64,000 bases of DNA, from the IMG/VR virus record IMGVR_UViG_3300028883_000002. One strand, written 5' to 3'. The notes under the pieces are model-generated. The model did no database searches, was not told where the DNA came from, and saw only the letters and a program-made list of their open reading frames with translations. Positions 24,242-58,824 of the stretch are shown here, in pieces (within the stretch, counting starts at the first letter, position 1; each line of letters starts with the position of its first letter). Origin of the DNA: a virus. Both the position numbers and the translations under genes were made by a program.

Positions 24242-25819
24242 ATGGCAAGATACGCGCAGAAGACTACAGGTACAAACAAGAGAGTGAATAAGGAAGGCGC
24301 AATCGCGTATGCAATGACTCCTGAAATGGAACTGTATACGCTCGTTTGCACTTCTACTCTCAAGGACAAGTTCTATACAAAGGCAGATGAAGATGTACAG
24401 AGAATTCGCAAGCTTGTTAGAAAGGTAAATCCTTTGCTTGTTGCTAAGCTTGCGGTGTACGCAAGAACACAGATGTATCTAAGAACGATTCCTTTGGTTC
24501 TTGCGGTTGAGCTTGCTAAGGTTCACTCTGAAAACATTCAGAAGGGAAAGAAGTTAGATTACCCCGCCGATATCGTTTCAAGAATGATTGCAAGTGTCAT
24601 AAGACGCGCTGATGAAATTCCAGAGCTTTTGGGGTACTACGCGCTTGCAAACGGAAGAAAGGGAACGAAGCAGCTTGGTAAGCTTTCGAAGCAAGTTCAA
24701 AAGGGATTGGGAATTTCGTTCAACAGATTCGATGAGTACGGATTTGGAAAGTACAATCGTGATACCGTGCCGTCAATGAGGGACGCATTGTTCCTTGTTC
24801 ACCCAAGACCTAAGAATGACGAGCAGCAAGCTTTGTTCCAGAAGATTGTAGACGACAATCTGGAAACTCCATACACTTGGGAGGTTGAGCTTTCAGAAGT
24901 TGGACAGGGAAAGTTTGATTCTCCTGAGGAAAAGGAAGCGGCAAAGCGCGACAAGTGGGAAGAGCTAATTGATAGCGGTAAGATTGGATATATGGCTCTG
25001 TTGAGAAATCTCAGAAACTTCCTTGACATTGGTGTATCTAATGACCATATTGATAAGGTAGCAGAGATTCTCTCAGACCCAGAACGCGTAGCAAAGTCAA
25101 AGCAGCTTCCGTTCAGATTCTATACTGCGTACAAGATGCTCAAGGACAATGCAAATCCGAATGTTGGAATCTTCCTTGACGCACTTAATACGGCAATCTG
25201 GGAATCTGTAAAGAATATTGATTGTGTGGATGAGAACGATACAGTTATGATTGCAGTTGATAAGTCAAGCTCAATGACCGGACGTTTAACTCCTTCAATG
25301 ATGTACTGTGAAGTTGGACTGTTGCTAGCTGTAATTCTCAGAAAGAAGGTTAAGAGAGTTACGCTTGGATTCTTCGGTTCCGACTTTGTTGTTTCACAGA
25401 TGCCAAAGACCGAAAACGTACTTGACGCTGTAGACAGGCTGAGCAAACAGCTTGGTGGTGGAGCAACAGAAGGTTGGCTTGTTCCCAAGTACGTTAGAGA
25501 AAATCCGAAATATGGATATAACAAGATTTTCATGTTCACCGATATGCAGTTGTGGAGCGTTGATAACAAGATAGGTTTAGGTTACGGATGGGGTTACGAT
25601 TCAAAGCTTCCCGGTGAATGGACTAAGTGCAAGGAAACCTTCGATGGAATTCAGTTGTATCTGATTGACCTTGCAGGATATGGAGATTCTCCGGTTGATA
25701 TCATGAGCAACAAGAGCGTTCTGATGGTAGCGGGATGGAGCGATAAGATTTTTAAGATGATTGGTCAGCTTTCTCGCGGCGGAACTGTTCTTAAAGAACT
25801 AGAAAAGATTGAAGTGTAG
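24242..25819 (+). CDS. rsr: Ro60/Rsr-like TROVE-domain protein with C-terminal vWA (MIDAS DxSxS)
   Basis: N-terminal ...NKEGAIAYAM...FY...LAVYARTQMYLRTIPL (TROVE pattern) and VDKSSSM MIDAS motif in the C-terminal third. Confidence 0.85.
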   Translation: MARYAQKTTGTNKRVNKEGAIAYAMTPEMELYTLVCTSTLKDKFYTKADEDVQRIRKLVRKVNPLLVAKLAVYARTQMYLRTIPLVLAVELAKVHSENIQKGKKLDYPADIVSRMIASVIRRADEIPELLGYYALANGRKGTKQLGKLSKQVQKGLGISFNRFDEYGFGKYNRDTVPSMRDALFLVHPRPKNDEQQALFQKIVDDNLETPYTWEVELSEVGQGKFDSPEEKEAAKRDKWEELIDSGKIGYMALLRNLRNFLDIGVSNDHIDKVAEILSDPERVAKSKQLPFRFYTAYKMLKDNANPNVGIFLDALNTAIWESVKNIDCVDENDTVMIAVDKSSSMTGRLTPSMMYCEVGLLLAVILRKKVKRVTLGFFGSDFVVSQMPKTENVLDAVDRLSKQLGGGATEGWLVPKYVRENPKYGYNKIFMFTDMQLWSVDNKIGLGYGWGYDSKLPGEWTKCKETFDGIQLYLIDLAGYGDSPVDIMSNKSVLMVAGWSDKIFKMIGQLSRGGTVLKELEKIEV

Positions 25820-37453: not shown

Positions 37454-40237
37454 ATGGCAAATACCAGAAAGAAAGTATCGGAGTATGTGGATGATACCGG
37501 ATGGAGGGCAAAAGAGAACGCCAATACGAGAAAATCAGTTTCAGGTCTCTACTCATTCGTTGCACATTCCGTCTTTGCGGAAGAGAACATGGAATCCATT
37601 CCGCATGGAGAAGAACATAGAGTTGGAGCATTGTATGCCCATGATTTAGGGTATCCAATCCAGACGGTGTATTGCGTAGGACACGACCTTTATGAGATTT
37701 TGACAAGAGGAATAATGACGGCTGGCGGGACGAGAAGTAAACCAGCTAAGCATATGGACACAGCAGTTGACCACATGGTTAATTTTCTGTGTATGGCACA
37801 GAACGAATGCGCTGGTGCTCAATCGTTTAGCAATGTGTCAACCCTTCTTGCTCCGTTTGTTAGAGCGGACAGGATGAATTATCAGCAGATTAAACAAACG
37901 GTTCAAAGAATGATATTCTCTCTTAACTATGAGAACCGAATCGCATTTCAGCAGAGCTTTACAAACTTCACTCTGGACCTAAAGCCAGCGGAAGTTTTCA
38001 AAGATGTAGAAGTTAGAGTTGGCGGTGAACCGCAGGGATATACTTACAAAGAATTGGGGAGAGAAGTTGAACTAGTTAACATGGCATTCCTAGAGGTTTA
38101 TATGGAAGGAGATTCAGAAGGAAAGCCATTCTCGTTTCCTATCCCGACAGTACAGGTTACCGATTACTCGCTCTTTGAAAAAACTGAATTCAACGACATG
38201 TTCTGGAAATTAGTTGCAAAGTTTGGAACTCCTTACTTTGCTAATTTCATAGGAACAGAACTAGACCCGAAAGCTACAAGGTCAATGTGCTGTGTAACGC
38301 CAGATACCAAGCTGTTTGTGCAAACCGCAAAAGGCAATACTGTTCAGACAGCCAAATATATATGGGATACGCACGGCAACGATAAATCAAATGGTTTTTT
38401 ATTATTCCATAACGGAAAGTGGAATAAAGCCAACATAGCAAGAGTAGAGGATGATGGTTACTTTGAAATAACGCTGTCAAACAATCACAAAATAAAGCTT
38501 ACGAAAACCCATGCGTGTAAAATATGGGATGATGAACTTGGAGAACAATTGGTTCCAGCACAACATGTTATTCCAAAACGACACTATATTCCCGTTAACA
38601 CAACAGCAATAAAAGGTAGTGTTCTAGGAGATTACAAACTTGGATATTTTATTGGAGTGTACGCTGGCGATGGGTGCGTATGCAACGACAATAACATAAC
38701 GATATCTCTAAACTCAGACCAAATGGATATAGCTAGAGAGCTTGTTGTTTTTGCGGAAAATAGATTTGGCTCGATTTGTACAACAGAAATAAGAGATAAT
38801 GTATTGTTCGTAAGGATTTTCGACAAAGCTCTTGTGGCATTTCTGAATAAATACATAGACACCAGCCTGCATGCTATAGATAAAACATTTACTGGAAAAG
38901 TTATTATGGCTAGCGAAGATTTTAGAAGGGGTGTTTATGCTGGAATGATGGATGCCGATGGAGCTATAGGCAATGTTAGTAAAAACAGATACTACTCTGC
39001 ATCAGAAAAACTCATAGAAGATTTTGTTGCTATCTGCACTTCTCTTGGTCTTGTTACATATCTTGAAAAACCCGATACAAGAGAAAGTAGATTAGGAACA
39101 AATCCGACATACTGTGCAAGAATATATTCTGGAAGACCGGGATATGCCACAGCATTCTTTACTGATGAGTTTGGAACCAAGTGGTATTCCGTTAAGAGCA
39201 TTGATTGGATTGCTAAGCCGGGAGTGTTCTTTGATTTTGAAGTAGATTCAGAAGAGCATTTATTTACACTCGCTAATGGAATCATTACTCATAATTGCCG
39301 CTTGAATTTAAATGCTAAAGATGCAGAACAACCACACGGACTCTGGGCTATTGGTTCTAAGACAGGTTCTCTGGCTGTCTCTACTATCAACCTGAATCGT
39401 TTGGGTATCATAGCAAACGATGAGGAAGAGTTCTTCAAACTCCTTAAAGATAAGATGGACCAAGCTAGGGAACAGTTGAAATATAGAAGGAACAGAATTG
39501 AAGAGGGTAGAGTCAAGCACAAGCTGCTTCCTATTTTCTCAGAATACATCGGAACCGAGAGAACCTTCTTCCTGACTGTTGGAATATGCGGTATGCATGA
39601 GTGTTGCATGAATTTGTTTGGCAAACCTATTTCTCAATGCGAAGATTTTGTCCTCAGGGTACTAGACAGAATGAAGAAGACCTTGAGAAAATGGGGCAAA
39701 GAAGATGGTTACCTATACAACTTTGAACAAACACCAGCAGAAACCGCTAGTTATAAAATGGCTAAAGAGGATATAAGACTATTCCCAGAGGCATTTGTTA
39801 GTACGGGAACGAATGGCGTTCCGTTCTTGACTAACTCAACCCATGAACCAATGTATAACGGAAGAACGCTACAAGAAAGATTAGAATGGGCAAGCAAAAC
39901 AGACAGCTTTTATACTGGTGGAACCATCTTGCATATCTGGTTACACGAAAAGCCGAATATAGCTTCGGTAAAGACTTTGGTTCGCGCAACGCTAGGGTAC
40001 AATATTCCTTACTTCACAATTACCCCAACTGTTACCCATTGTGGAGATTGCGGAAAGATATCATATGGACCGAGAGATAAGTGTCCGCATTGTGGCTCAT
40101 TAAACGTCGAAAGCCTAACTAGAGTCGTAGGATATTATGCGCCTATGTCTCGATTCAACAAAGGGCAGCATGAACAACATGGCGTGAAAGTAGCGTTTGA
40201 TAATCAGGTGGATGAGGTTATAATGAAAGGGGAATAA
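37454..40237 (+). CDS. nrdD: anaerobic (class III) ribonucleoside-triphosphate reductase, interrupted by an intein
   Basis: Extein junction RSMC|CRLNL restores the NrdD CCRL motif. C-terminal CGDCG...CPHCG Zn site and RVVGYYA glycyl-radical motif. Confidence 0.9.
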   Translation: MANTRKKVSEYVDDTGWRAKENANTRKSVSGLYSFVAHSVFAEENMESIPHGEEHRVGALYAHDLGYPIQTVYCVGHDLYEILTRGIMTAGGTRSKPAKHMDTAVDHMVNFLCMAQNECAGAQSFSNVSTLLAPFVRADRMNYQQIKQTVQRMIFSLNYENRIAFQQSFTNFTLDLKPAEVFKDVEVRVGGEPQGYTYKELGREVELVNMAFLEVYMEGDSEGKPFSFPIPTVQVTDYSLFEKTEFNDMFWKLVAKFGTPYFANFIGTELDPKATRSMCCVTPDTKLFVQTAKGNTVQTAKYIWDTHGNDKSNGFLLFHNGKWNKANIARVEDDGYFEITLSNNHKIKLTKTHACKIWDDELGEQLVPAQHVIPKRHYIPVNTTAIKGSVLGDYKLGYFIGVYAGDGCVCNDNNITISLNSDQMDIARELVVFAENRFGSICTTEIRDNVLFVRIFDKALVAFLNKYIDTSLHAIDKTFTGKVIMASEDFRRGVYAGMMDADGAIGNVSKNRYYSASEKLIEDFVAICTSLGLVTYLEKPDTRESRLGTNPTYCARIYSGRPGYATAFFTDEFGTKWYSVKSIDWIAKPGVFFDFEVDSEEHLFTLANGIITHNCRLNLNAKDAEQPHGLWAIGSKTGSLAVSTINLNRLGIIANDEEEFFKLLKDKMDQAREQLKYRRNRIEEGRVKHKLLPIFSEYIGTERTFFLTVGICGMHECCMNLFGKPISQCEDFVLRVLDRMKKTLRKWGKEDGYLYNFEQTPAETASYKMAKEDIRLFPEAFVSTGTNGVPFLTNSTHEPMYNGRTLQERLEWASKTDSFYTGGTILHIWLHEKPNIASVKTLVRATLGYNIPYFTITPTVTHCGDCGKISYGPRDKCPHCGSLNVESLTRVVGYYAPMSRFNKGQHEQHGVKVAFDNQVDEVIMKGE
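38291..39295 (+). mobile_element. intein (335 aa) with LAGLIDADG homing endonuclease
   Basis: Starts CVTPDTKL, ends ITHN followed by +1 Cys. LAGLIDADG blocks GYFIGVYAGDG and YAGMMDADG. Confidence 0.85.
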
Positions 40238-40238
40238 G

Positions 40239-40427
40239 TTGAATATTCTTGGTTGGTCTTTTGCGTTTGTGTGCGGATTGGCATTTGCTCTAATTGGTTT
40301 TGTTGCATTTTGTGCTGGAGCATGGGGCAACCTTCAAGGAAAACTGTTAACATTCGGATTTCTAGGTGGCGGTGCTACGGTAGCTGTAGCATCTGCCGTA
40401 ATTCTCATTAATCATATGTTAAATTAG
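40239..40427 (+). CDS. small membrane protein (TTG start)
   Basis: ORF track; two hydrophobic helices. Confidence 0.45.
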   Translation: MNILGWSFAFVCGLAFALIGFVAFCAGAWGNLQGKLLTFGFLGGGATVAVASAVILINHMLN

Positions 40428-40463
40428 TGGGGGCGTGGCTAAACTGGTAAAGGCACTTGGCTT

Positions 40464-41187
40464 AGTTAAGCTGAGCACTAATATTGGAAACTTTATTAGT
40501 GAATGTAGTCAAATTCGGGGAAACCTGTAAAATGGCAATCCCGAGCTAAGCAAGGAGAAAGTATTAACTTTATTTAGGGCGGCAATAAGAAATTGTTAAA
40601 GCATGACAATTTGGACACAACACAGTAAGATTATCAATGTTATTATTTCTATTGTTTCCATCAATATGATGTAACTGTAAAGGAATTGGCTGATGTTGCC
40701 ATTCTGATAGCCCGCAATTATAGCACTTGTGTTCAAAGTAGCCATCAGAAATAAGGCGACACCTTAACCAAGATGTTTTGATTTCATGTTTGCAATTATC
40801 GGTTAAATAATAGCTGGTATCTCTTTTGGGACCATGAACTTGCCCTTTGTTCCAGCCTTTTCCCTTAAAATGAGATACATCAATCGCCAATCTTTTGACC
40901 AATGATTTAATGCTTTGATAATTTCCTCCAGCAGTTTTGAGTCCTAGCTTTAAAATAACCTGTCGGTAGGATATAGACTCTTTTACTGCTTTGCGCAATT
41001 GTTTCTCTGAATATGACCTAGTTCGCATAATTTCTCCTTGAAAGTGTAGAGACTCAACGGCTACTACCTAAGTTCAAAAGAATAAGGTAAAGAGAGAGTC
41101 CAGACCACAAACGTATTTGCCGTATATAATACAGGTGAAAGTGCTTAAATTAGTGCATTTACGGTAACGAAAGTTATAGCTGGCAAG
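40464..41187 (+). mobile_element. group I intron (tRNA-Leu-intron-like core)
   Basis: GGGGAAACCT...GGCAATCCCGAGCTAAGC and GAGACTCAACGG..TAAGGTAAAGAGAGAGTCCA resemble the cyanobacterial tRNA-Leu intron core from memory. IGS GAGC at 40473-40476 pairs with exon GCTT through a U.G pair. Confidence 0.75.
40570..41028 (-). CDS. HNH homing endonuclease encoded antisense inside the intron
   Basis: LQLHHIDGNNRNNNIDNLTVLCPNCHA. Its RBS AAGGAGAA is the complement of intron stem strand TTCTCCTT (41032-41039). Confidence 0.85.
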   Translation of the reverse strand: MRTRSYSEKQLRKAVKESISYRQVILKLGLKTAGGNYQSIKSLVKRLAIDVSHFKGKGWNKGQVHGPKRDTSYYLTDNCKHEIKTSWLRCRLISDGYFEHKCYNCGLSEWQHQPIPLQLHHIDGNNRNNNIDNLTVLCPNCHALTISYCRPK

Positions 41188-41246
41188 AGGACCAAGGTTA
41201 ATGGGGGTTCGAATCCCTCCGCCCCTACCAAATCAAAGGAAAGGAA

Positions 41247-45033: not shown

Positions 45034-45111
45034 GGGAGCGCGGGTCGGCTTTCTTCACCTAACCGGAACGCGACAGGAAGTTCCGACCTTGCGCTCCCCC
45101 CAGATTGGGGG
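45034..45111 (+). promoter_or_regulatory. long stem-loop with alternative pairing to the downstream RBS
   Basis: GGGAGCGCGGGTCGG (45034-45048) pairs with CCGACCTTGCGCTCCC (45083-45098). The CCCCC run at 45096-45100 could instead pair with RBS GGGGG at 45107-45111. Confidence 0.4.
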
Positions 45112-45115
45112 AAGG

Positions 45116-46351
45116 ATGATAAACATATATGCACCATTAAATACTCTTGGCTATGGGGTCCATGCCCTCAACTGGACAGGAGCTTTACACCAACTAGGAG
45201 TTGAATTAGGTTTCAGACCAATAGGCGTAGCGGGTGGGCTTCAAAATTCGTTCTACGTTGATATATTCAATAAGGCAATTGCTAACCATCCTGTAACGGA
45301 TTTTGATGCACCTACTATTGTGCTCTGGCACGAAAACGACCTTGCAAGATATAGAGGAACTCCGCTCATTGGGTACACAGTATTCGAAACTAATCAGTTG
45401 AGAAACAACCATGTTTATGAGCTTTCTCAACTCGATGCAATATGGGTTGTATCACATTGGGCAAAAGAGGTACTGGAGCAATATGACGAATTAAAAGAAA
45501 AAGTCTATGTTGTACCAGAAGGGGTTCACGCGGGTATTTACAAGAGAGAAAAAAGTGAAGAAGACAGGGAACTGCTTCAAGGGTTTTCTGAAGCACTTGA
45601 TGAAATAATAGGAGATAGATATGCTATTGTCTCCCTTGGCAAGTACGAGAAGAGGAAGAACAACGACCTGATTCTCGAATTGATGGATAAGAGATTCAAA
45701 AATGGAATCACGCCAATCTGCCTTTTTGCGTTATGGGACAATCCCTTCATGCCAGATTACGGGCAAAATATAATGGAACACATGGAAGGTATTCACTACT
45801 TCATAGACCAAGAGCTTTCCTCTAAAGCGGGCATTCCTGTATTTAACTCAATAGCTGGCGGACATAGGATTGTTCTCTTTCCTAGGAGGTTGACCGAAAT
45901 ACATCTTGCAGAGATTTATAGAAAGTCAGACCTAGGATTATTCCCCTATAGGTCAGAGGGATGGAACCTTCCTTTGATTGAATGCTTGGCTTGTGGTACT
46001 AGATGTATAGCAACTAACTACTCTGGTCCAACTGAATATCTACCTGATACCGATGCTACACTAATTGAAGATTTTGAAATGGTAACAGCAGATGATGGAA
46101 TGTGGTTCAGGGGTGACGTTGGAACTTGGCCTGAGTTTTCGGCAGAAACACTCTACGAGATTTCCAATCCTATAATCTTAGAAGGAAAGGGGATACGAAA
46201 CAAATGTGCAGAAACAATTGCACAGAAGTGGAGTTGGATAGAAGCGGCAAAGAAATCAATTGAAGCTTTGAATCAGCTTGATATTATGACGTATACGGGC
46301 CACGATGTAGCACAAGTTGTGGAGGATGAGGATGAAACACAGAGTAGCTAA
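45116..46351 (+). CDS. glycosyltransferase, GT-B fold (GT4-like)
   Basis: EGWNLPLIECLACGTRCIATNYSGPTEY matches the GT1/GT4 C-terminal signature. Confidence 0.7.
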   Translation: MINIYAPLNTLGYGVHALNWTGALHQLGVELGFRPIGVAGGLQNSFYVDIFNKAIANHPVTDFDAPTIVLWHENDLARYRGTPLIGYTVFETNQLRNNHVYELSQLDAIWVVSHWAKEVLEQYDELKEKVYVVPEGVHAGIYKREKSEEDRELLQGFSEALDEIIGDRYAIVSLGKYEKRKNNDLILELMDKRFKNGITPICLFALWDNPFMPDYGQNIMEHMEGIHYFIDQELSSKAGIPVFNSIAGGHRIVLFPRRLTEIHLAEIYRKSDLGLFPYRSEGWNLPLIECLACGTRCIATNYSGPTEYLPDTDATLIEDFEMVTADDGMWFRGDVGTWPEFSAETLYEISNPIILEGKGIRNKCAETIAQKWSWIEAAKKSIEALNQLDIMTYTGHDVAQVVEDEDETQSS

Positions 46352-50994: not shown

Positions 50995-51149
50995 CAGATA
51001 ATCTCCCGGTTCAGCTAGATAAAACTACCTGCCCCAACTGCGGCAGAAAACTTAAGGACATAGAAACCAAAGAGGTAGACAAATATTTTGTTTTAGCAAG
51101 ATGCGATAGTTGTTTCTGTGACTTCGTAATTCCGAAAGGCTTACTATGA
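50991..51149 (+). CDS. zinc-ribbon protein, 52 aa (CPNCG...CDSC)
   Basis: Read by eye; ATGA overlaps at both ends. Confidence 0.55.
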   Translation: MTDNLPVQLDKTTCPNCGRKLKDIETKEVDKYFVLARCDSCFCDFVIPKGLL

Positions 51150-53725
51150 AAATTCTCCATGTAGGACAAGCGGCAAGCCTAGCCCAAAAGTATGGCGGAG
51201 CAGAATACACAGATGCTATGATAATGAAAGCTGGAGTAAAGAGAGGGCATCGTGTCCTTTCGGTAAACCATCGTGGAAAAATGACAGACTGGAATACAGG
51301 TAGCACCCAAAAGATAAACCTGTGGAGGATAATTAGTGCTGCTGAAGTTTGTGATGTTGCGATAGTATGCAATATAGAATGGTTTCTTCCAGAAATAATT
51401 GAGAGGTTTGTTGATACTCTAGTTGGTAGAATTCCGTTTGTTTATCATCCACACCACTTTACTCCATGTATGTATACAGGACTGCCGGATACAACAGAAG
51501 GTCTATGTGACAAAATGTGCAAAGGAAAATATTCGTGCCTAGAAGAGTATAGAGGCCTTTTCTATAAGTACATTCTAATGAATGCATCGAAAGTAATTTG
51601 CTTAAGCCCTCTGCATAGAGAAATGTTCATCAAAGCATATGGCGACGAAATAGACTATGGACACTTTGAGTGCTGCCCCCCTGTAATAGGAGAGGAATTT
51701 TGTAATGAAAAACTGGATAGAATACTAGATACCGTTACTGTAGGTGGTGGAACATTTCAAAAAGGCTTCTTGAATCATATAACATGGGCAAAAGAGAATC
51801 CAGACAGAACTCTTAGCGTGTATGGTAAGGTTCAAAAAATCGGAAAACTTCCAGACAACATTGAGTTGTGCGGAACAACTTCTAACGCTTCTCTACCAAG
51901 CATATTAAACATGTATAGGTCTTTCCTATATCTGCCCCAATGGGAAGAACCATACGGGAGAGTGGTGGCAGAAGCCGCTTTGTGCGGCTGCGAAATGATA
52001 GTAGATAAAGATAAAACAGGGGCATATTCCTATTCTACCCCACCAAAAATGCATCAAATTGACCCAGAAACGGGCAATGGATTTTGGAACCACCTAGAAG
52101 CTATAGCTAATACTCGACTTCCAAAACTGTCGTTCGAAGAAGTTGCAAAGAGTAGCAACATAGAATTTAGCAAAGATAGCATAGATTCATGCAAGGTTGG
52201 GATAGTAACCGCTATGTACAACCAAGCTGAATATACCATTAAGTTTCTGGAAAGTCTTGAAAAAAGTAGCATACCACCAAATACTTTTGTTGTAATAGTT
52301 GATGATAATTCCGACCCAGAAGAACTAGAAAAACTGTGCAGCAGCAAAACATACCAAGAAACCAAGCTAAACGTAGAAATACTAAAGCACACCGAAAACG
52401 AAAGCTGCACTAAATCATGGAATGATGGCATCAATATAGTATTCGAAGTTATGCCAGATGTAGAATATATAGTAATAACCAATAATGATGTTATCTTTCC
52501 AAAGGCATGGTTGTACTATTTAGTAAGGGACCAAAGGATATTTGGTGCTGCAATTGTGGGGCCACTGTCAAACCAGCCGGGTTCAAGGCCTTGCCAAGAA
52601 GTGGGCTTGGTGCTTTCAAATTACAAAGAAAGCGATAAGCCAGAAAATATCGAAGAGACACAAGCTAAACTTGCAGCTTTTAATCTACTGCCAAGAAATG
52701 TATCCGCTGTTAACGGATTTTGCATGTTATTTGAAACTAGTGCCTTAAAAAGGCTACAGAAAAACCCCGGCGAATATTTTGATAATAGTATGGTTACCTA
52801 TGGTAGCGATGATGATATCAACAACAGGGCATTTTTAGCAAGAATGGACATAAGGATAAGTAAAACATCTTTTGTATTTCACTACAAAGCTGTTACTGTT
52901 GAGGATAACCCGCTAGAACACCCCGGCTTATTAAGGATTGGAAAAGATATGAGCAAAACAGTAAGGGCAAAAGGAGTGGTGGATAGCTTTAATACCCTAG
53001 TTAAAACCCTTGATAATAACAAGAGAGTGTTCTTTACTAGATTTGGGGATGCCGATATTCTCATGATGTCCGGCAAACAAATGAAGTCTAGCGGTAATCA
53101 AACAACTAACACACCGGACCTGACAGCCGAAATGAAGGAAGCATTTCAAATAGATGACCCAAGATTTCTTAAGGCTACTAGCACATCATATCCAAAAGAG
53201 CCGGGAATGCAGGACGGCCTGTTTGCGCCTTTTCCTTACAATGCAGAACTAGCTGAAATAGTAAAGAGGTATAACACTTCGGACCAAACGCTATTCGAAA
53301 ACCCTGTAATGTTTCACTATCTCGCCGTGTTTTCGCCAGAGGTATTTCTTACATTTCTAGATAAGTACATTAGGCCCAAGAGAAAACTATTCGTGGGGGC
53401 TTGTTCAAAAGAGAACATGGAAAAAATGTTTGGCAAGATAGACTTCTATGTTAACACTCCCTTGCAAAACTCATATGCAACTATGCACCAATGGTATCCT
53501 CAAGTTCTTGATACAGTTGTTAATGATAAAATTGAATTGGTTATCTTAGCAAGCGGTCAAAGTAGCAGAGCATTACAAGCAAGATTGTGGAACATAGCAG
53601 AAACGTATGCTCTTGATTTTCATAGTATTGACATAGGAAGTGTAGTAGATGCAGTAGAGGGTAATTCTACAAGGACTTGGATTAGACTCGCAGGAGATAA
53701 AGTAAGGAGGTTGTTTGATGGTTAA
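51146..53725 (+). CDS. 859-aa multidomain glycosyltransferase (GT4-like + GT2 + GT-D/DUF1792-like)
   Basis: YGRVVAEAALCGCEMIV (GT-B), VGIVTAMYNQ...VIVDDNSD (GT2), FTRFGDADILMM (GT-D-like). Confidence 0.75.
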   Translation: MKILHVGQAASLAQKYGGAEYTDAMIMKAGVKRGHRVLSVNHRGKMTDWNTGSTQKINLWRIISAAEVCDVAIVCNIEWFLPEIIERFVDTLVGRIPFVYHPHHFTPCMYTGLPDTTEGLCDKMCKGKYSCLEEYRGLFYKYILMNASKVICLSPLHREMFIKAYGDEIDYGHFECCPPVIGEEFCNEKLDRILDTVTVGGGTFQKGFLNHITWAKENPDRTLSVYGKVQKIGKLPDNIELCGTTSNASLPSILNMYRSFLYLPQWEEPYGRVVAEAALCGCEMIVDKDKTGAYSYSTPPKMHQIDPETGNGFWNHLEAIANTRLPKLSFEEVAKSSNIEFSKDSIDSCKVGIVTAMYNQAEYTIKFLESLEKSSIPPNTFVVIVDDNSDPEELEKLCSSKTYQETKLNVEILKHTENESCTKSWNDGINIVFEVMPDVEYIVITNNDVIFPKAWLYYLVRDQRIFGAAIVGPLSNQPGSRPCQEVGLVLSNYKESDKPENIEETQAKLAAFNLLPRNVSAVNGFCMLFETSALKRLQKNPGEYFDNSMVTYGSDDDINNRAFLARMDIRISKTSFVFHYKAVTVEDNPLEHPGLLRIGKDMSKTVRAKGVVDSFNTLVKTLDNNKRVFFTRFGDADILMMSGKQMKSSGNQTTNTPDLTAEMKEAFQIDDPRFLKATSTSYPKEPGMQDGLFAPFPYNAELAEIVKRYNTSDQTLFENPVMFHYLAVFSPEVFLTFLDKYIRPKRKLFVGACSKENMEKMFGKIDFYVNTPLQNSYATMHQWYPQVLDTVVNDKIELVILASGQSSRALQARLWNIAETYALDFHSIDIGSVVDAVEGNSTRTWIRLAGDKVRRLFDG

Positions 53726-56380: not shown

Positions 56381-57736
56381 ATGTCGCACGACTCTACGGT
56401 ATACGTCGGAATGGCAGCAGATGTTCTTCATGCAGGACACATAAACATCTTGCGAACAGCAGCGGGATACGGAAGAATAATTGTGGGGCTGTTAAGTGAT
56501 GAAGCTATCGCAAGTTACAAACGCATCCCCTTGATGAATTTTCATCAAAGGCAGGAAGTGGTTAGCAACATTTCAGGCGTGAATGAAGTCATTATTCAGA
56601 AAACACTAGACTATACAGACAACCTGAAGCGGTTAAAACCCGATTATGTTGTTCATGGTGACGATTGGAAAGATGGACCACAGAAGGGAACAAGAGAAAA
56701 AGTAATAGAGTGCCTCAGAGAGTGGGGCGGTAAGTTAATTGAAGTTCCGTATACCAAGGGAATTTCTTCAACTGAGGTAATCAATAGAATCAGAGGAGAA
56801 GGAATATCTCCTGACAAACGCAGGGAATTACTCAGAGATATAATGAGCAAGAAACCTCTCTGTAGATTCATCGAAGCACACAATGGACTAAGTGCTTTGG
56901 TAGCAGAGAATGCTGAATATACAGACGGAGAAATTCGCAGGGAGTTTGATGGTATCTGGGTTGGGAGTTTAGCTCTCTCCACTTCAAAAGGCAAGCCAGA
57001 TACAGGAGTAGTTGACTTCTCTGAGCGATACAAGGCAATCGAAGAAATCATGGAGGTTACTACGAAGCCGATAATCGTAGACGGAGATTCTGGCGGTTCG
57101 TATGACAACTTTGGACACAAGGTCAGAACGCTTGAGCGGCTTGGTGTATCGGGTATCATAATAGAGGACAAGATAGGCGTTAAAAGGAACTCGCTTTTCC
57201 AAGAGGGGGAAGCTGTTCCTCAAACGCAAGACACGATAGAAAACTTCTCAAAGAAAATTCGCGCAGGAGTTCAGGCTCTACTGGACCGCAGGAGCTTCAT
57301 GATAATCGCTAGAATAGAATCTCTTGTGCTAGGCGGTACGGTAGAAGACGCCCTAGAAAGAGCGCAATGGTATTTGAACTCTGGCGCAAGTGCGATAATG
57401 ATACACAGTAAAGATAGGGAAATCGGGAAGTTACTAGATTTTTGCGAAAAATACAATGAAAAAATCTACCTATTGGGCGGACCTTATGAAACTCCGCAGA
57501 AAACAAGAATGCCGCTCGTCATGGTTCCTACTGCTTATGACCATATCAGAGAAGAGGAACTAAAACGATGGGGAGCTAATGTTGTTATATATGCAAACCA
57601 ACTAGTACGAAGTGCTTATCCTGCAATGCTAAGAACAGCAAATCAGATACTAAGGGACCAACAGGCAGAAAGAGCCTGTAACGAAAACTGTATGTCAGTA
57701 AAAGAGTTGCTCACTTTAATACCGGAGGACTATTAA
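56381..57736 (+). CDS. pepM: cytidylyltransferase-phosphoenolpyruvate mutase fusion (PntC-PepM type)
   Basis: N-terminal [11 protein letters not shown] (HxGH). C-terminal [16 protein letters not shown] and the PepM-diagnostic [10 protein letters not shown]. Confidence 0.9.
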
Positions 57737-58824
57737 TGTACACAAAGGTTCCACAGTTGGAAAAGGGGTATGCAGATTGGAAAGATGCTCTTTGCGACAT
57801 ATGGAGAAGCCACTCCTGCTTCCAAAGTCCGCTGTATGTGGTTTCCGAAGGTAGCATGAAGAGACTCAAGCTTGGGCCGTTTGCAAGCGAGAACTGGATT
57901 TGGGTTGACTCAAGCGAAAGGGACATGAGGAAGGTATCAAAATTCTATCTTAAAAGAACGCTCGACTTAGATTTTGATACCGTAATTGCAATAGGTGGCG
58001 GATTTACACTAGACGTAGCTAAGTTGATTCTTGCCAGTAAGTGTTTTGATACCTGTTCGGCAGAAGTTATCAAAGACAGAGAAGATATAATCTACAGATA
58101 TTGCCCGTCAATATTCATTCCCACTACTTGTGGGTCTGGTAGTGAAGCTACTCCATATGCAACTGTGTGGGATTTACACAACAAGAGGAAGTTCTCTATT
58201 AGAAGCGAAGATTTAGTTCCAAACTATGCGATACTTGATTCGCATCTTCTTTTGTCTATGCCCCAACAGGTAGCGCACAGTTCAATGATGGATGCAATAG
58301 CACATTGTATTGACTCGTTCTTGAGCGTTAAAAGAACGGAGCAATCCCAGCTATTCGCAAGAGAAGCTCTAAGCGCAATTGTTCCAAAGCTTAATGCAAA
58401 CGACCATACCTACAGAGATGTTCTAGACCTGATGGTAGGAGCATATTACGCAGGAAGAGCAATTGCAATCAGCGAGACTTCTTTGTGCCATGCACTTAGT
58501 TATCCGTTAACACTTCATTATGGGATACCGCACGGTATCGCATGTGGAATGATGTTAGCTACGGCGATAGATTGCCATGCTGCTCTCGATAAATATCTGG
58601 AAAGAATCGTATCTAGAGGAGAATTGAGTTCTAGAATTCTGCTACATTTTGAGGTAATGTTGAAGAAGTGGAATGCATTCCTCAGGGACGAAAATCCAGA
58701 TATTAATTTCCTAGCTAATTGCGCCAGTAATGAGAGGATGAGTAACTACAGCTATATTGACCCAAGAAATGAAAGCGAAGTTTTTGAGGCGGCAAAGGAC
58801 TTTTACAAAAGGGTCTTACGATGA
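57736..58824 (+). CDS. iron-containing alcohol dehydrogenase (candidate phosphonoacetaldehyde reductase)
   Basis: IGGGFTLDVAK, TTCGSGSEATP, MMDAIAHC, CHALSYPLTLHYGIPHG. Confidence 0.8.
   Translation: MYTKVPQLEKGYADWKDALCDIWRSHSCFQSPLYVVSEGSMKRLKLGPFASENWIWVDSSERDMRKVSKFYLKRTLDLDFDTVIAIGGGFTLDVAKLILASKCFDTCSAEVIKDREDIIYRYCPSIFIPTTCGSGSEATPYATVWDLHNKRKFSIRSEDLVPNYAILDSHLLLSMPQQVAHSSMMDAIAHCIDSFLSVKRTEQSQLFAREALSAIVPKLNANDHTYRDVLDLMVGAYYAGRAIAISETSLCHALSYPLTLHYGIPHGIACGMMLATAIDCHAALDKYLERIVSRGELSSRILLHFEVMLKKWNAFLRDENPDINFLANCASNERMSNYSYIDPRNESEVFEAAKDFYKRVLR

Follow-up and report, generated by a model that had tools for sequence, protein, structure and literature searches.

Can a phage tRNA gene be the host of a self-splicing intron, and can such an intron carry an endonuclease gene that runs against its own ribozyme? 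These questions are raised by positions 40429-41230 of IMG/VR virus record IMGVR_UViG_3300028883_000002, a stretch of 64,000 nt that is called the window below. A first-pass annotation, made from the sequence alone, had described this locus as a tRNA gene split in the anticodon loop by a group I intron with an HNH gene encoded antisense. We followed up the locus computationally. The results indicate that it is, in all likelihood, a phage tRNA-Leu(UAG) gene split at U34|A35 by an IC3 intron with an intact antisense HNH gene in loop L6a, and that it is probably a self-splicing, homing element.

The split tRNA gene and its junction

When introns were allowed, ARAGORN predicted a 78-nt tRNA(UAG) composed of 40429-40463 and 41188-41230; a 724-nt intron (40464-41187) separates its positions 34 and 35. 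When the program was used without introns (default), five tRNAs were found in the window and none of them at 40429-41230. The two exons are as follows.

40429-40463, plus strand: tRNA exon 1; acceptor 5' strand GGGGGCG, D-arm, anticodon stem 5' strand CUUGG, loop C32 U33 U34 (ARAGORN)
41188-41230, plus strand: tRNA exon 2; A35 G36 G37 A38, stem 3' strand CCAAG, variable loop GUUAAU (6 nt), T-arm, acceptor 3' strand, A73, encoded CCA (ARAGORN)

Exon 1 ends with CTTGGCTT and exon 2 starts with AGGACCAAG. All coordinates and strings given for the exons and the intron in the first-pass annotation were present in the sequence, and the UAG anticodon and the 34/35 junction that it had proposed were the same in the ARAGORN call. 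The junction may slide by 2 nt without altering the product, as the intron and exon 2 both begin with AG. Only with U34|A35 does the 5' splice site follow a U and the intron end in G, and all relatives described below are split at this position. Furthermore, the locus was assembled from two independent samples with 99.98-100% identity, which rules out an assembly artefact.

The intron as a group I ribozyme

40464-41187, plus strand: group I intron (IC3, tRNA-Leu type), 724 nt, omega-G 41187 (Rfam partial matches, nhmmer, family alignment, covariation)

The Rfam model Intron_gpI (RF00028), a check suggested in the first-pass annotation, gave two half-matches at permissive thresholds, 40454-40748 (32.4 bits, E 2.8e-6) and 40884-41122 (21.2 bits, E 6e-3). 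A homologue of the intron that holds no open reading frame (ORF), from locus L020 (related loci are numbered with the prefix L), scored 61.7 bits, above the Rfam gathering score. We also built a hidden Markov model (HMM) from 15 ORF-less phage tRNA-Leu introns of 196-218 nt, with the window left out. Using this model, nhmmer matched the window only at 40466-40556 (E 2.4e-17, model positions 4-93) and at 41037-41117 (E 2.3e-13, model positions 97-175), the next-best match having an E of 4.5. The break at model positions 93/97 is loop L6a.

Subsequently, 19 family introns with their ORFs trimmed were aligned. RNAalifold recovered the exon anticodon stem, P1, P2, P3, P4, P5, P6a, P8, and P9. In the full P1-P9 structure, P7 being written as a pseudoknot, 96.3% of the cells were paired, compared with 32-41% when the partners were slid; double-sided changes occurred in 36 of the 59 pairs, and none of 500 shuffles reached the observed values. 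The window sequence itself forms every pair of the anticodon stem, P1, P3, P4, P5, P6, P6a, P7, and P8. Its elements are listed here.

40461-40475, plus strand: P1; CUU|AG (40461-40465) with CUGAG (40471-40475), U40463.G40473 wobble at the 5' splice site; P1 columns 100% paired in 19 members
40476-40501, plus strand: P2 hairpin; CACUAAUA / UAUUAGUG, perfect 8 bp; all nine family P2 pairs show compensatory changes
40505-40510, plus strand: P3 5' strand GUAGUC, pairing with 41059-41064; 6/6 pairs in the window, all six covarying in the family
40514-40545, plus strand: P4-P5; P4 UUCGGGG (40514-40520) with UCCCGAG (40539-40545), P5 CC (40524-40525) with GG (40534-40535)
40546-40560, plus strand: P6 and P6a 5' arm; P6 C40546 U40547 with A41043 G41044, AAG internal loop, P6a arm CAAGGAGAAA at 40551-40560
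41031-41040, plus strand: P6a 3' arm UUUCUCCUUG, pairing with 40551-40560
41049-41101, plus strand: catalytic core; P7 5' G41049, bulged A41050, GACUC 41051-41055; P3 3' 41059-41064; P8 41065-41068 with 41086-41089; P7 3' GAGUCC 41096-41101
41104-41187, plus strand: P9 region; P9.0 41105-41108 with 41179 and 41181-41183, AT-rich window-specific expansion at about 41113-41163, GAAA-capped hairpin 41164-41177

The P7 pseudoknot is 100% paired in the family, and its sixth pair covaries as U-A, A-U, or C-G. The second P6 pair covaries as C-G, U-A, or G-C, and each of the four P6a pairs in the alignment has changes in both strands. The seeming mismatches of the window in P2 were due to an alignment offset of one column. 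G41187, which had been put forward as a possible omega-G, precedes exon 2 and falls in the alignment column of the final G, which is invariant throughout the family introns (...GGYAAG|). The first-pass annotation had also paired a guide GAGC (40473-40476) with exon GCTT through a terminal U.G. The wobble and the pairing of CUU|AG with CUGAG were borne out; the sixth pair, G40460-C40476, is optional. We had considered this pair as a compensatory one between the internal guide sequence and the exon and then downgraded it, since C40476 covaries with the closing pair of P2 (C-G or U-A) and not with the exon.

Introns of bacterial tRNA-Arg(CCU) and tRNA-Met and of cyanobacterial tRNA-fMet contain exactly the same 27-mer, GGTAAAGAGAGAGTCCAGACCACAAAC (41086-41112), which places the element in the IC3 tRNA-intron lineage. 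Taken together, the half-matches, the family HMM, and the covariation indicate that the core segments, in which a tRNA-Leu group I intron had been recognised at first, are real and far above chance. Separately, the 16-mer GGTAAAGAGAGAGTCC was searched in IMG/VR and discarded, as it gave six chance matches inside coding sequence.

The antisense HNH gene

40570-41028, minus strand: HNH homing-endonuclease gene, 152 aa, filling loop L6a (40561-41030) (ORF, homologues, PHROG, structural model)

The 152-aa ORF lies on the minus strand within the loop closed by CAAGGAGAAA (40551-40560) and TTTCTCCTTG (41031-41040), as had been proposed; these arms are perfect complements and correspond to P6a. The start codon is 2 nt from the P6a 3' arm and the stop codon 9 nt from the 5' arm. 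The minus strand reads CAAGGAGAAATT-ATG, with an AAGGAG Shine-Dalgarno sequence about 6 nt before the ATG. This Shine-Dalgarno sequence is the complement of the P6a 3' arm, in agreement with the earlier statement to this effect.

The protein has 465 homologues. It keeps all 19 invariant positions of a 36-sequence alignment, and the invariant residues present include H121, N129, N133/N140, and H142, as well as the zinc-binding cysteines C102, C105, C138, and C141. PHROG 10822 'HNH endonuclease' matched residues 1-150 with an E of 2.1e-43. An AlphaFold model (pLDDT 89) showed an N-terminal helical domain resembling a helix-turn-helix and a C-terminal beta-beta-alpha-metal domain, in which the elements of the HNH motif are E118-121, E134-137, and H139-143. 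All ORFs of at least 200 aa in 1-60 kb are on the plus strand; the HNH gene thus runs opposite to the whole block.

The same architecture was found in other phage-metagenome loci. The antisense ORF is situated in L6a in all nine cases, namely the window and L022, L024, L027, L035, L052, L054, L072, and L103. In these nine introns the start codon is beside the P6a 3' arm, and the sequence of P6a differs from locus to locus with its complementarity kept. The arrangement in which the P6a complement serves as the Shine-Dalgarno sequence was also observed in L027, L035, L052, L054, and L072. Antisense endonuclease genes in group I introns had been called rare in the first-pass annotation. This is true of the literature, where only the cases of PMC9548176 were met, but the design recurs in at least eight other divergent loci here. 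In L022 and L027, the antisense ORFs continue through the complement of the P4/P5 core and end in similar C-terminal tails, ..SALP.K.SPN, which are probably incidental read-through.

Between P7' and the 3' splice site there are 54-91 nt in the nine introns with an antisense ORF and 46-51 nt (one 68) in those with a sense ORF or none (Mann-Whitney p = 8e-6, for cases that are not phylogenetically independent). In all nine, the longer P9 consists of an AT-rich expansion. That of the window (41113-41163) folds no better than shuffles, and the expansion is a candidate site for the minus-strand promoter of the HNH gene; the best promoter matches in the nine antisense introns fall at inconsistent positions. 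A long minus-strand transcript would bury its own Shine-Dalgarno sequence in the complement of P6a, and this could hold the endonuclease at a low level.

Identity of the spliced tRNA

Family members otherwise have GACUU|AAAAUC (anticodon UAA, A37) at the junction, and the window alone has GGCUU|AGGACC (UAG, G37, and G-C at 31-39), making it the only UAG allele found among the family loci. A tRNA that reads CUN codons is expected to carry G37. CUN codons make up 68% of the leucine codons in 21 large ORFs of the phage, and CUA 19%.

The spliced tRNA is identical to the tRNA-Leu(UAA) of the same phage at 14695 in 61 of 78 positions (78%), the acceptor 5' strand and the T-loop being the same. A single gap turns GGGUUAAUAGCCAUG of tRNA-Leu(UAA) into GGUUAAUG of the split tRNA, which marks it as a tRNA-Leu by descent in which half of the variable arm has been deleted. 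Indeed, the long variable arm (a stem-loop of at least 10 nt) of canonical bacterial type II tRNA-Leu is absent, and the 6-nt loop GUUAAU in its place aligns with the 5' half of the tRNA-Leu(UAA) variable arm. The discriminator A73 (A41227) precedes the encoded CCA, as in the other five tRNAs of the phage. Class-I-shaped tRNAs with leucine anticodons recur in phages, including cultured ones, and a bacterial leucyl-tRNA synthetase (LeuRS) that charges a natural type I tRNA-Leu has been documented (PMC6614811). On these grounds the split tRNA would work like, and derive from, tRNA-Leu, although it is not a canonical type II member. The first-pass annotation had left the identity unclear on account of the short variable arm; the arm is indeed short, but the likeness to tRNA-Leu(UAA), A73, and G37 make the identity less unclear.

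The acceptor 5' strand GGGGGCG is common to tRNA-Leu(UAA) (14695-14781), tRNA-Lys(UUU) (16331-16404), and the split tRNA, which hints at sequence homogenisation or common descent among the tRNAs of this phage.

Relatives of the HNH gene and of the intron

IMG/VR was scanned with the HNH alignment and 547 relatives were obtained; the context counts in the next two sentences come from the best 80 of these 547 loci. A tRNA gene, almost always tRNA-Leu(UAA), touches or encloses the HNH gene in 73 of them. The HNH gene immediately follows an intron-less tRNA-Leu, with both on one strand, in about 26 loci; it is downstream of an intron-containing tRNA in about 11, upstream of the tRNA in 8, convergent with an intron-containing tRNA in about 7, and inside the intron in the sense direction in 9-10 and in the antisense direction in 6. 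Since ARAGORN in long-intron mode made false chimeric calls across tandem tRNAs, its calls were filtered by demanding ribozyme motifs. In 7 loci a sense ORF is located in L1, where it separates the guide sequence from the 5' splice site; in one locus (L067) it is in L6a. Free-standing HNH genes adjoin a tRNA with an ORF-less intron in L020, L028-L031, L042, L046, L048, L056, L058, L059, L071, L073, L080, L085, and L088.

In five close homologues (L019, L020, L022, L024, and L026), the HNH gene is opposite in strand to its neighbours. L022 and L024 have the same antisense-in-intron design as the window; in L020, tRNA-Leu(UAA) is split by an ORF-less intron of 197 nt, and a convergent HNH gene abuts the 3' end of the tRNA; L019 and L026 have an intron-less tRNA-Leu with a convergent HNH gene. 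Cultured phages also have HNH homologues beside tRNA-Leu: Rhodococcus phage Francesca (UAA), Gordonia phage GodonK (UAG, 76 nt), Synechococcus phage S-CRM01 (CAA, 75 nt), and Citrobacter phage Michonne (UAG, 77 nt). Contiguous tRNA-Leu genes of the Synechococcus phages S-CAM1, S-WAM2, and SynMITS9220M01 match the exons of L028 with 92-95% identity, which shows that intron-minus alleles exist in close relatives. Furthermore, two unannotated huge-phage genomes in GenBank, LR756501.1 (735 kb) and LR756511.1 (595 kb), hold examples: a tRNA-Leu(UAA) split by a 205-nt ORF-less intron in the former (189088-191728, L115) and one split by a 700-nt intron with a sense HNH gene in the latter (408178-410878, L116).

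When IMG/VR was scanned for the intron itself using AGTCCAGACYACAAA, at least 119 loci were obtained, of which at least 78 are in intron-split tRNAs, mostly tRNA-Leu(UAA). Other phage tRNAs split by introns of the IC3 type were tRNA-Arg(UCU) (L117, L185, L198, L205, L209, and L210), tRNA-Asn(GUU) (L127, L168, L221, and L233), tRNA-Met(CAU) (L183 and L189), tRNA-Ser(UGA) (L213), and tRNAs with the anticodon UCA (L119 and L158). Judging from their anticodon, the last two could be opal suppressors. No HNH gene of this family was found near ORF-less introns of non-Leu tRNAs (0 of 14). In L210, the 776-nt intron of tRNA-Arg(UCU) holds a different, HNH-like ORF of 187 aa in the antisense direction, so the backwards arrangement is not limited to the tRNA-Leu family.

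Genomic surroundings of the locus

40197-40224, plus strand: sigma-70-like promoter match TTGATA-16-TATAAT (11/12), upstream of the small ORF 40239-40427 and the tRNA (consensus scan only)

This match may drive the pre-tRNA; the number of sigma-70-like sites in the region is not above the shuffle expectation. The small ORF (40239-40427, plus strand), situated between nrdD and the tRNA, encodes a hydrophobic protein of 62 aa with two predicted membrane-like segments and had no family match in Pfam or PHROGs. The gene that directly precedes the split tRNA, nrdD (anaerobic ribonucleotide reductase, 37454-40237, plus strand), contains an intein that bears a LAGLIDADG endonuclease domain; two mobile elements of different self-splicing types are thus present inside 4 kb.

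Near the phage tRNA cluster (14.7-20.1 kb), a PolyA_pol-head nucleotidyltransferase of the CCA-adding type (8272-9675, plus strand) and a TROVE/Ro60-like protein (24242-25819, plus strand) are encoded, which suggests an RNA-maintenance module of the phage. Glycosyltransferases, a PEP mutase fused to a cytidylyltransferase, and an Fe-alcohol dehydrogenase are encoded at 45089-46351, 51146-53725, and 56381-58824 (plus strand), in what looks like a phosphonate or glycan-decoration cluster. No close relatives of this phage were found by DNA in INPHARED, and its DnaE is at most 36% identical to others.

Discussion

The locus was compared with known systems. The classical tRNA-Leu group I intron (Kuhsel et al. 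1990, cited in PMC3984707) resembles that of the window in its insertion between U34 and A35, its P6/P6a layout, and its reliance on the exon anticodon stem. The core strings GGGAAACC..GGCAAUCC.GAGC.AAG, AGAGACU..ACGG, and GGUAAAGAGAGAGUCCA are common to both. The classical intron has the anticodon UAA and no ORF, whereas that of the window is phage-borne, with UAG, a short variable loop, a 470-nt insert in L6a with an endonuclease gene, and an expanded P9. I-SspI is an endonuclease of the PD-(D/E)XK type. The Synechocystis tRNA-fMet intron that encodes it (Bonocora and Shub 2001, cited in PMC3984707) is likewise a group I intron in the anticodon loop of a bacterial-type tRNA with its own tRNA-gene-specific endonuclease. 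Unlike the window element, it is cellular, its gene is in the sense direction, and its enzyme is not an HNH protein.

The phage introns with I-HmuI, I-BasI, I-TwoI, and I-PfoP3I (PMC3428280, PMC3984707) also combine a phage group I intron with an HNH enzyme, but they are in protein-coding genes and their ORFs are in the sense direction. No sequence or whole-fold similarity was found between the HNH protein of the window and solved HNH homing enzymes. T4 SegB is a free-standing GIY-YIG endonuclease in a tRNA gene cluster; it is also a phage endonuclease dedicated to a tRNA region, but it belongs to a different nuclease family and involves no intron.

Antisense homing-endonuclease genes have been described only for His-Cys box genes of nuclear rDNA introns (PMC9548176). 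I-DsqI in Dsq.L2066 and the gene in Dir.S956-2 share with the window an antisense gene in a peripheral ribozyme loop, the need for an own promoter, and the problem of antisense interference. They are eukaryotic, however: their His-Cys box enzymes are encoded in P9 or P2 of introns of the IE or IC1 type, and they use RNA polymerase II promoters, polyadenylation, and spliceosomal introns. The locus in the window is a phage tRNA gene whose IC3 intron holds, in L6a, an ORF of bacterial type that has a Shine-Dalgarno sequence and encodes an HNH enzyme. In the literature searched, which covers only a minority of subscription journals, we found no description of this family of introns and endonucleases, no report of group I introns in phage tRNAs, and none of bacterial or phage introns with an antisense endonuclease gene; phage tRNA introns are not mentioned in a huge-phage paper or in a 2025 intron database paper. 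A review in 2014 placed every phage intron known at the time in protein-coding genes, although tRNA genes are numerous in phages (PMC3984707).

The same review describes collaborative (trans) homing, in which a free-standing endonuclease and an ORF-less intron share a site, as in S-PM2 psbA with F-CphI and in a second phage system, and it uses the terms intronless homing, collaborative homing, and endonuclease-gene invasion (PMC3984707). The distribution of the HNH family matches all three. Relatives such as L020, L028, L046, L059, and L073 show a free-standing HNH gene with an ORF-less intron; those with the gene inside the intron correspond to the end-product that collaborative homing predicts, and the window itself is of this fused form. 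The occurrence of HNH genes on their own, beside ORF-less introns, and inside introns is the pattern expected of collaborative homing followed by fusion, and the arrangements resemble successive natural stages between collaborative homing and a composite mobile intron. We infer that the element in the window is a fused, potentially mobile intron.

The following course of events is proposed. The pre-tRNA would be transcribed along with the other plus-strand genes. The ribozyme would fold into P1-P9 and, with the anticodon stem bringing the exons together, guanosine would attack after U40463 and the second step would occur at omega-G41187. The product would be a 78-nt tRNA with the anticodon UAG, G37, A73, and CCA that reads CUN leucine codons. 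The HNH mRNA would be made separately from the minus strand, possibly from a promoter in the AT-rich P9 expansion, and translated from the Shine-Dalgarno sequence supplied by the P6a complement. During co-infection, the enzyme would cut intron-less or HNH-less tRNA-Leu alleles of related phages, and repair would copy the intron together with the endonuclease gene into the cut allele. Such an element could have originated when a free-standing endonuclease specialised on tRNA-Leu and an ORF-less intron in the same gene were fused by insertion into a peripheral loop. A wider scenario is given somewhat less than an even chance: IC3 introns have radiated in phage tRNAs and one HNH lineage is found at every stage; it invaded L1 (sense) and L6a (antisense) independently; the antisense form, a stable arrangement of bacterial type, frees endonuclease expression from that of the tRNA by means of a promoter in the expanded P9; and the copy in the window was retargeted from UAA to a class-I-shaped UAG tRNA.

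Several results weigh against the main reading, that of a self-splicing, homing intron. At the Rfam gathering score (50 bits) nothing is reported at the locus, both half-matches falling short of it because the 470-nt ORF insert splits the model. The Pfam scores of the HNH protein are under their cut-offs (HNH_3, 22.6 bits against 24.8; HNH, 17.6 against 21.4), and a comparison with the PDB by sequence and fold gave no whole-protein match, only weak matches of the HNH motif to McrA, TagI, Cap5, and Gme. A consensus scan for a sigma-70-type promoter on the minus strand found none upstream of the ATG, and a terminator was likewise not found. As for an intron-less allele of the UAG tRNA, an anticodon-arm 17-mer matched only unrelated tRNAs and coding sequence in IMG/VR, and an exon-1 27-mer had no match in JGI metagenomes; the neighbouring GP88 gene as a query led to one non-syntenic locus. 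No second UAG-type intron was found among the family loci scanned, which bears on the current mobility of the window copy. Among ORF-less tRNA-Leu introns with complete flanks, an HNH gene is adjacent in 5 of 24 and absent nearby in the other 19; 5 more tRNA-Leu introns with complete flanks have it inside. In a neighbour-joining tree of the HNH proteins, the antisense members do not form one clade and are mixed among convergent and divergent free-standing ones, but the tree, with short deep branches and no support values, is too weakly resolved for counting invasions.

Some of these observations would also suit a working ribozyme whose antisense HNH gene is silent or past homing, the element being a fixed, immobile passenger that is tolerated since splicing restores the tRNA. 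We consider this improbable. It would account for the undetected minus-strand promoter and for a UAG allele that is unique in the data, its intron-less counterpart not being found in the searches made; moreover, the C-terminus of the window protein, ISYCRPK, departs from the family consensus YRGKN, and the P6a arm would sequester the Shine-Dalgarno sequence in a longer minus-strand transcript. On the other hand, the ORF is full-length with every invariant catalytic and zinc-binding residue kept, a canonical Shine-Dalgarno sequence lies about 6 nt before the ATG, and the antisense cassette in L6a is kept in 8 other loci although the proteins are only about 50% identical, which suggests long-term purifying selection on the protein in the antisense arrangement. 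In tRNA arrays, the majority of family members stand free next to tRNA-Leu genes that lack an intron, which would also suit a family that serves chiefly in phage-phage competition or in amplification or exchange of tRNA regions, the location in an intron being incidental. SegB, free-standing in the tRNA cluster of T-even phages, is reported to promote inheritance and amplification of its region (PMC13096335). Such roles do not exclude homing, however, because a gene within the intron is co-converted with it, and homing would select for just such a repeated tight placement in L1 or L6a, as seen in 17 of the best 80 loci; we regard a main role of the family other than intron homing as unlikely.

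It may also be asked whether the spliced RNA is a functional leucine tRNA at all, or whether the intron resides in a decaying tRNA-Leu pseudogene or in a tRNA charged with another amino acid. The variable region of 6 nt, in place of the long arm that defines bacterial tRNA-Leu, and a D-stem of 3 pairs, one of them G.U, would fit this. The acceptor stem, T-arm, anticodon stem, A73, and encoded CCA are nevertheless intact; G37 arose along with the change from UAA to UAG, as expected of a CUN reader; and the anticodon stem that the ribozyme requires was preserved by a compensatory change from A-U to G-C. The phage uses CUA for about a fifth of its leucine codons, tRNAs of this shape with leucine anticodons are frequent in phages, and the LeuRS mentioned above charges one of type I. 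There seems little chance that the RNA is not a functional leucine tRNA. The reading that we prefer remains that of a self-splicing, homing intron in a phage tRNA-Leu(UAG) gene.

The interest of the locus lies chiefly in the family behind it, which on the evidence of gene context is an HNH lineage tied to tRNA-Leu that ranges from free-standing to intron-borne. The textbook picture, in which phage group I introns are present only in protein-coding genes (PMC3984707), is contradicted by this locus and its relatives. The antisense design, otherwise known only from eukaryotic rDNA introns, raises the questions of how the gene is transcribed against a 60-kb unidirectional block and how interference with the ribozyme is avoided. 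Standard tRNA finders miss intron-split genes, and phage tRNA repertoires are therefore undercounted, here by a probable CUN-reading tRNA-Leu and elsewhere possibly by suppressor tRNAs. How mobile introns arise could be tested on the relatives, which form a natural series comprising dozens of independent cases.

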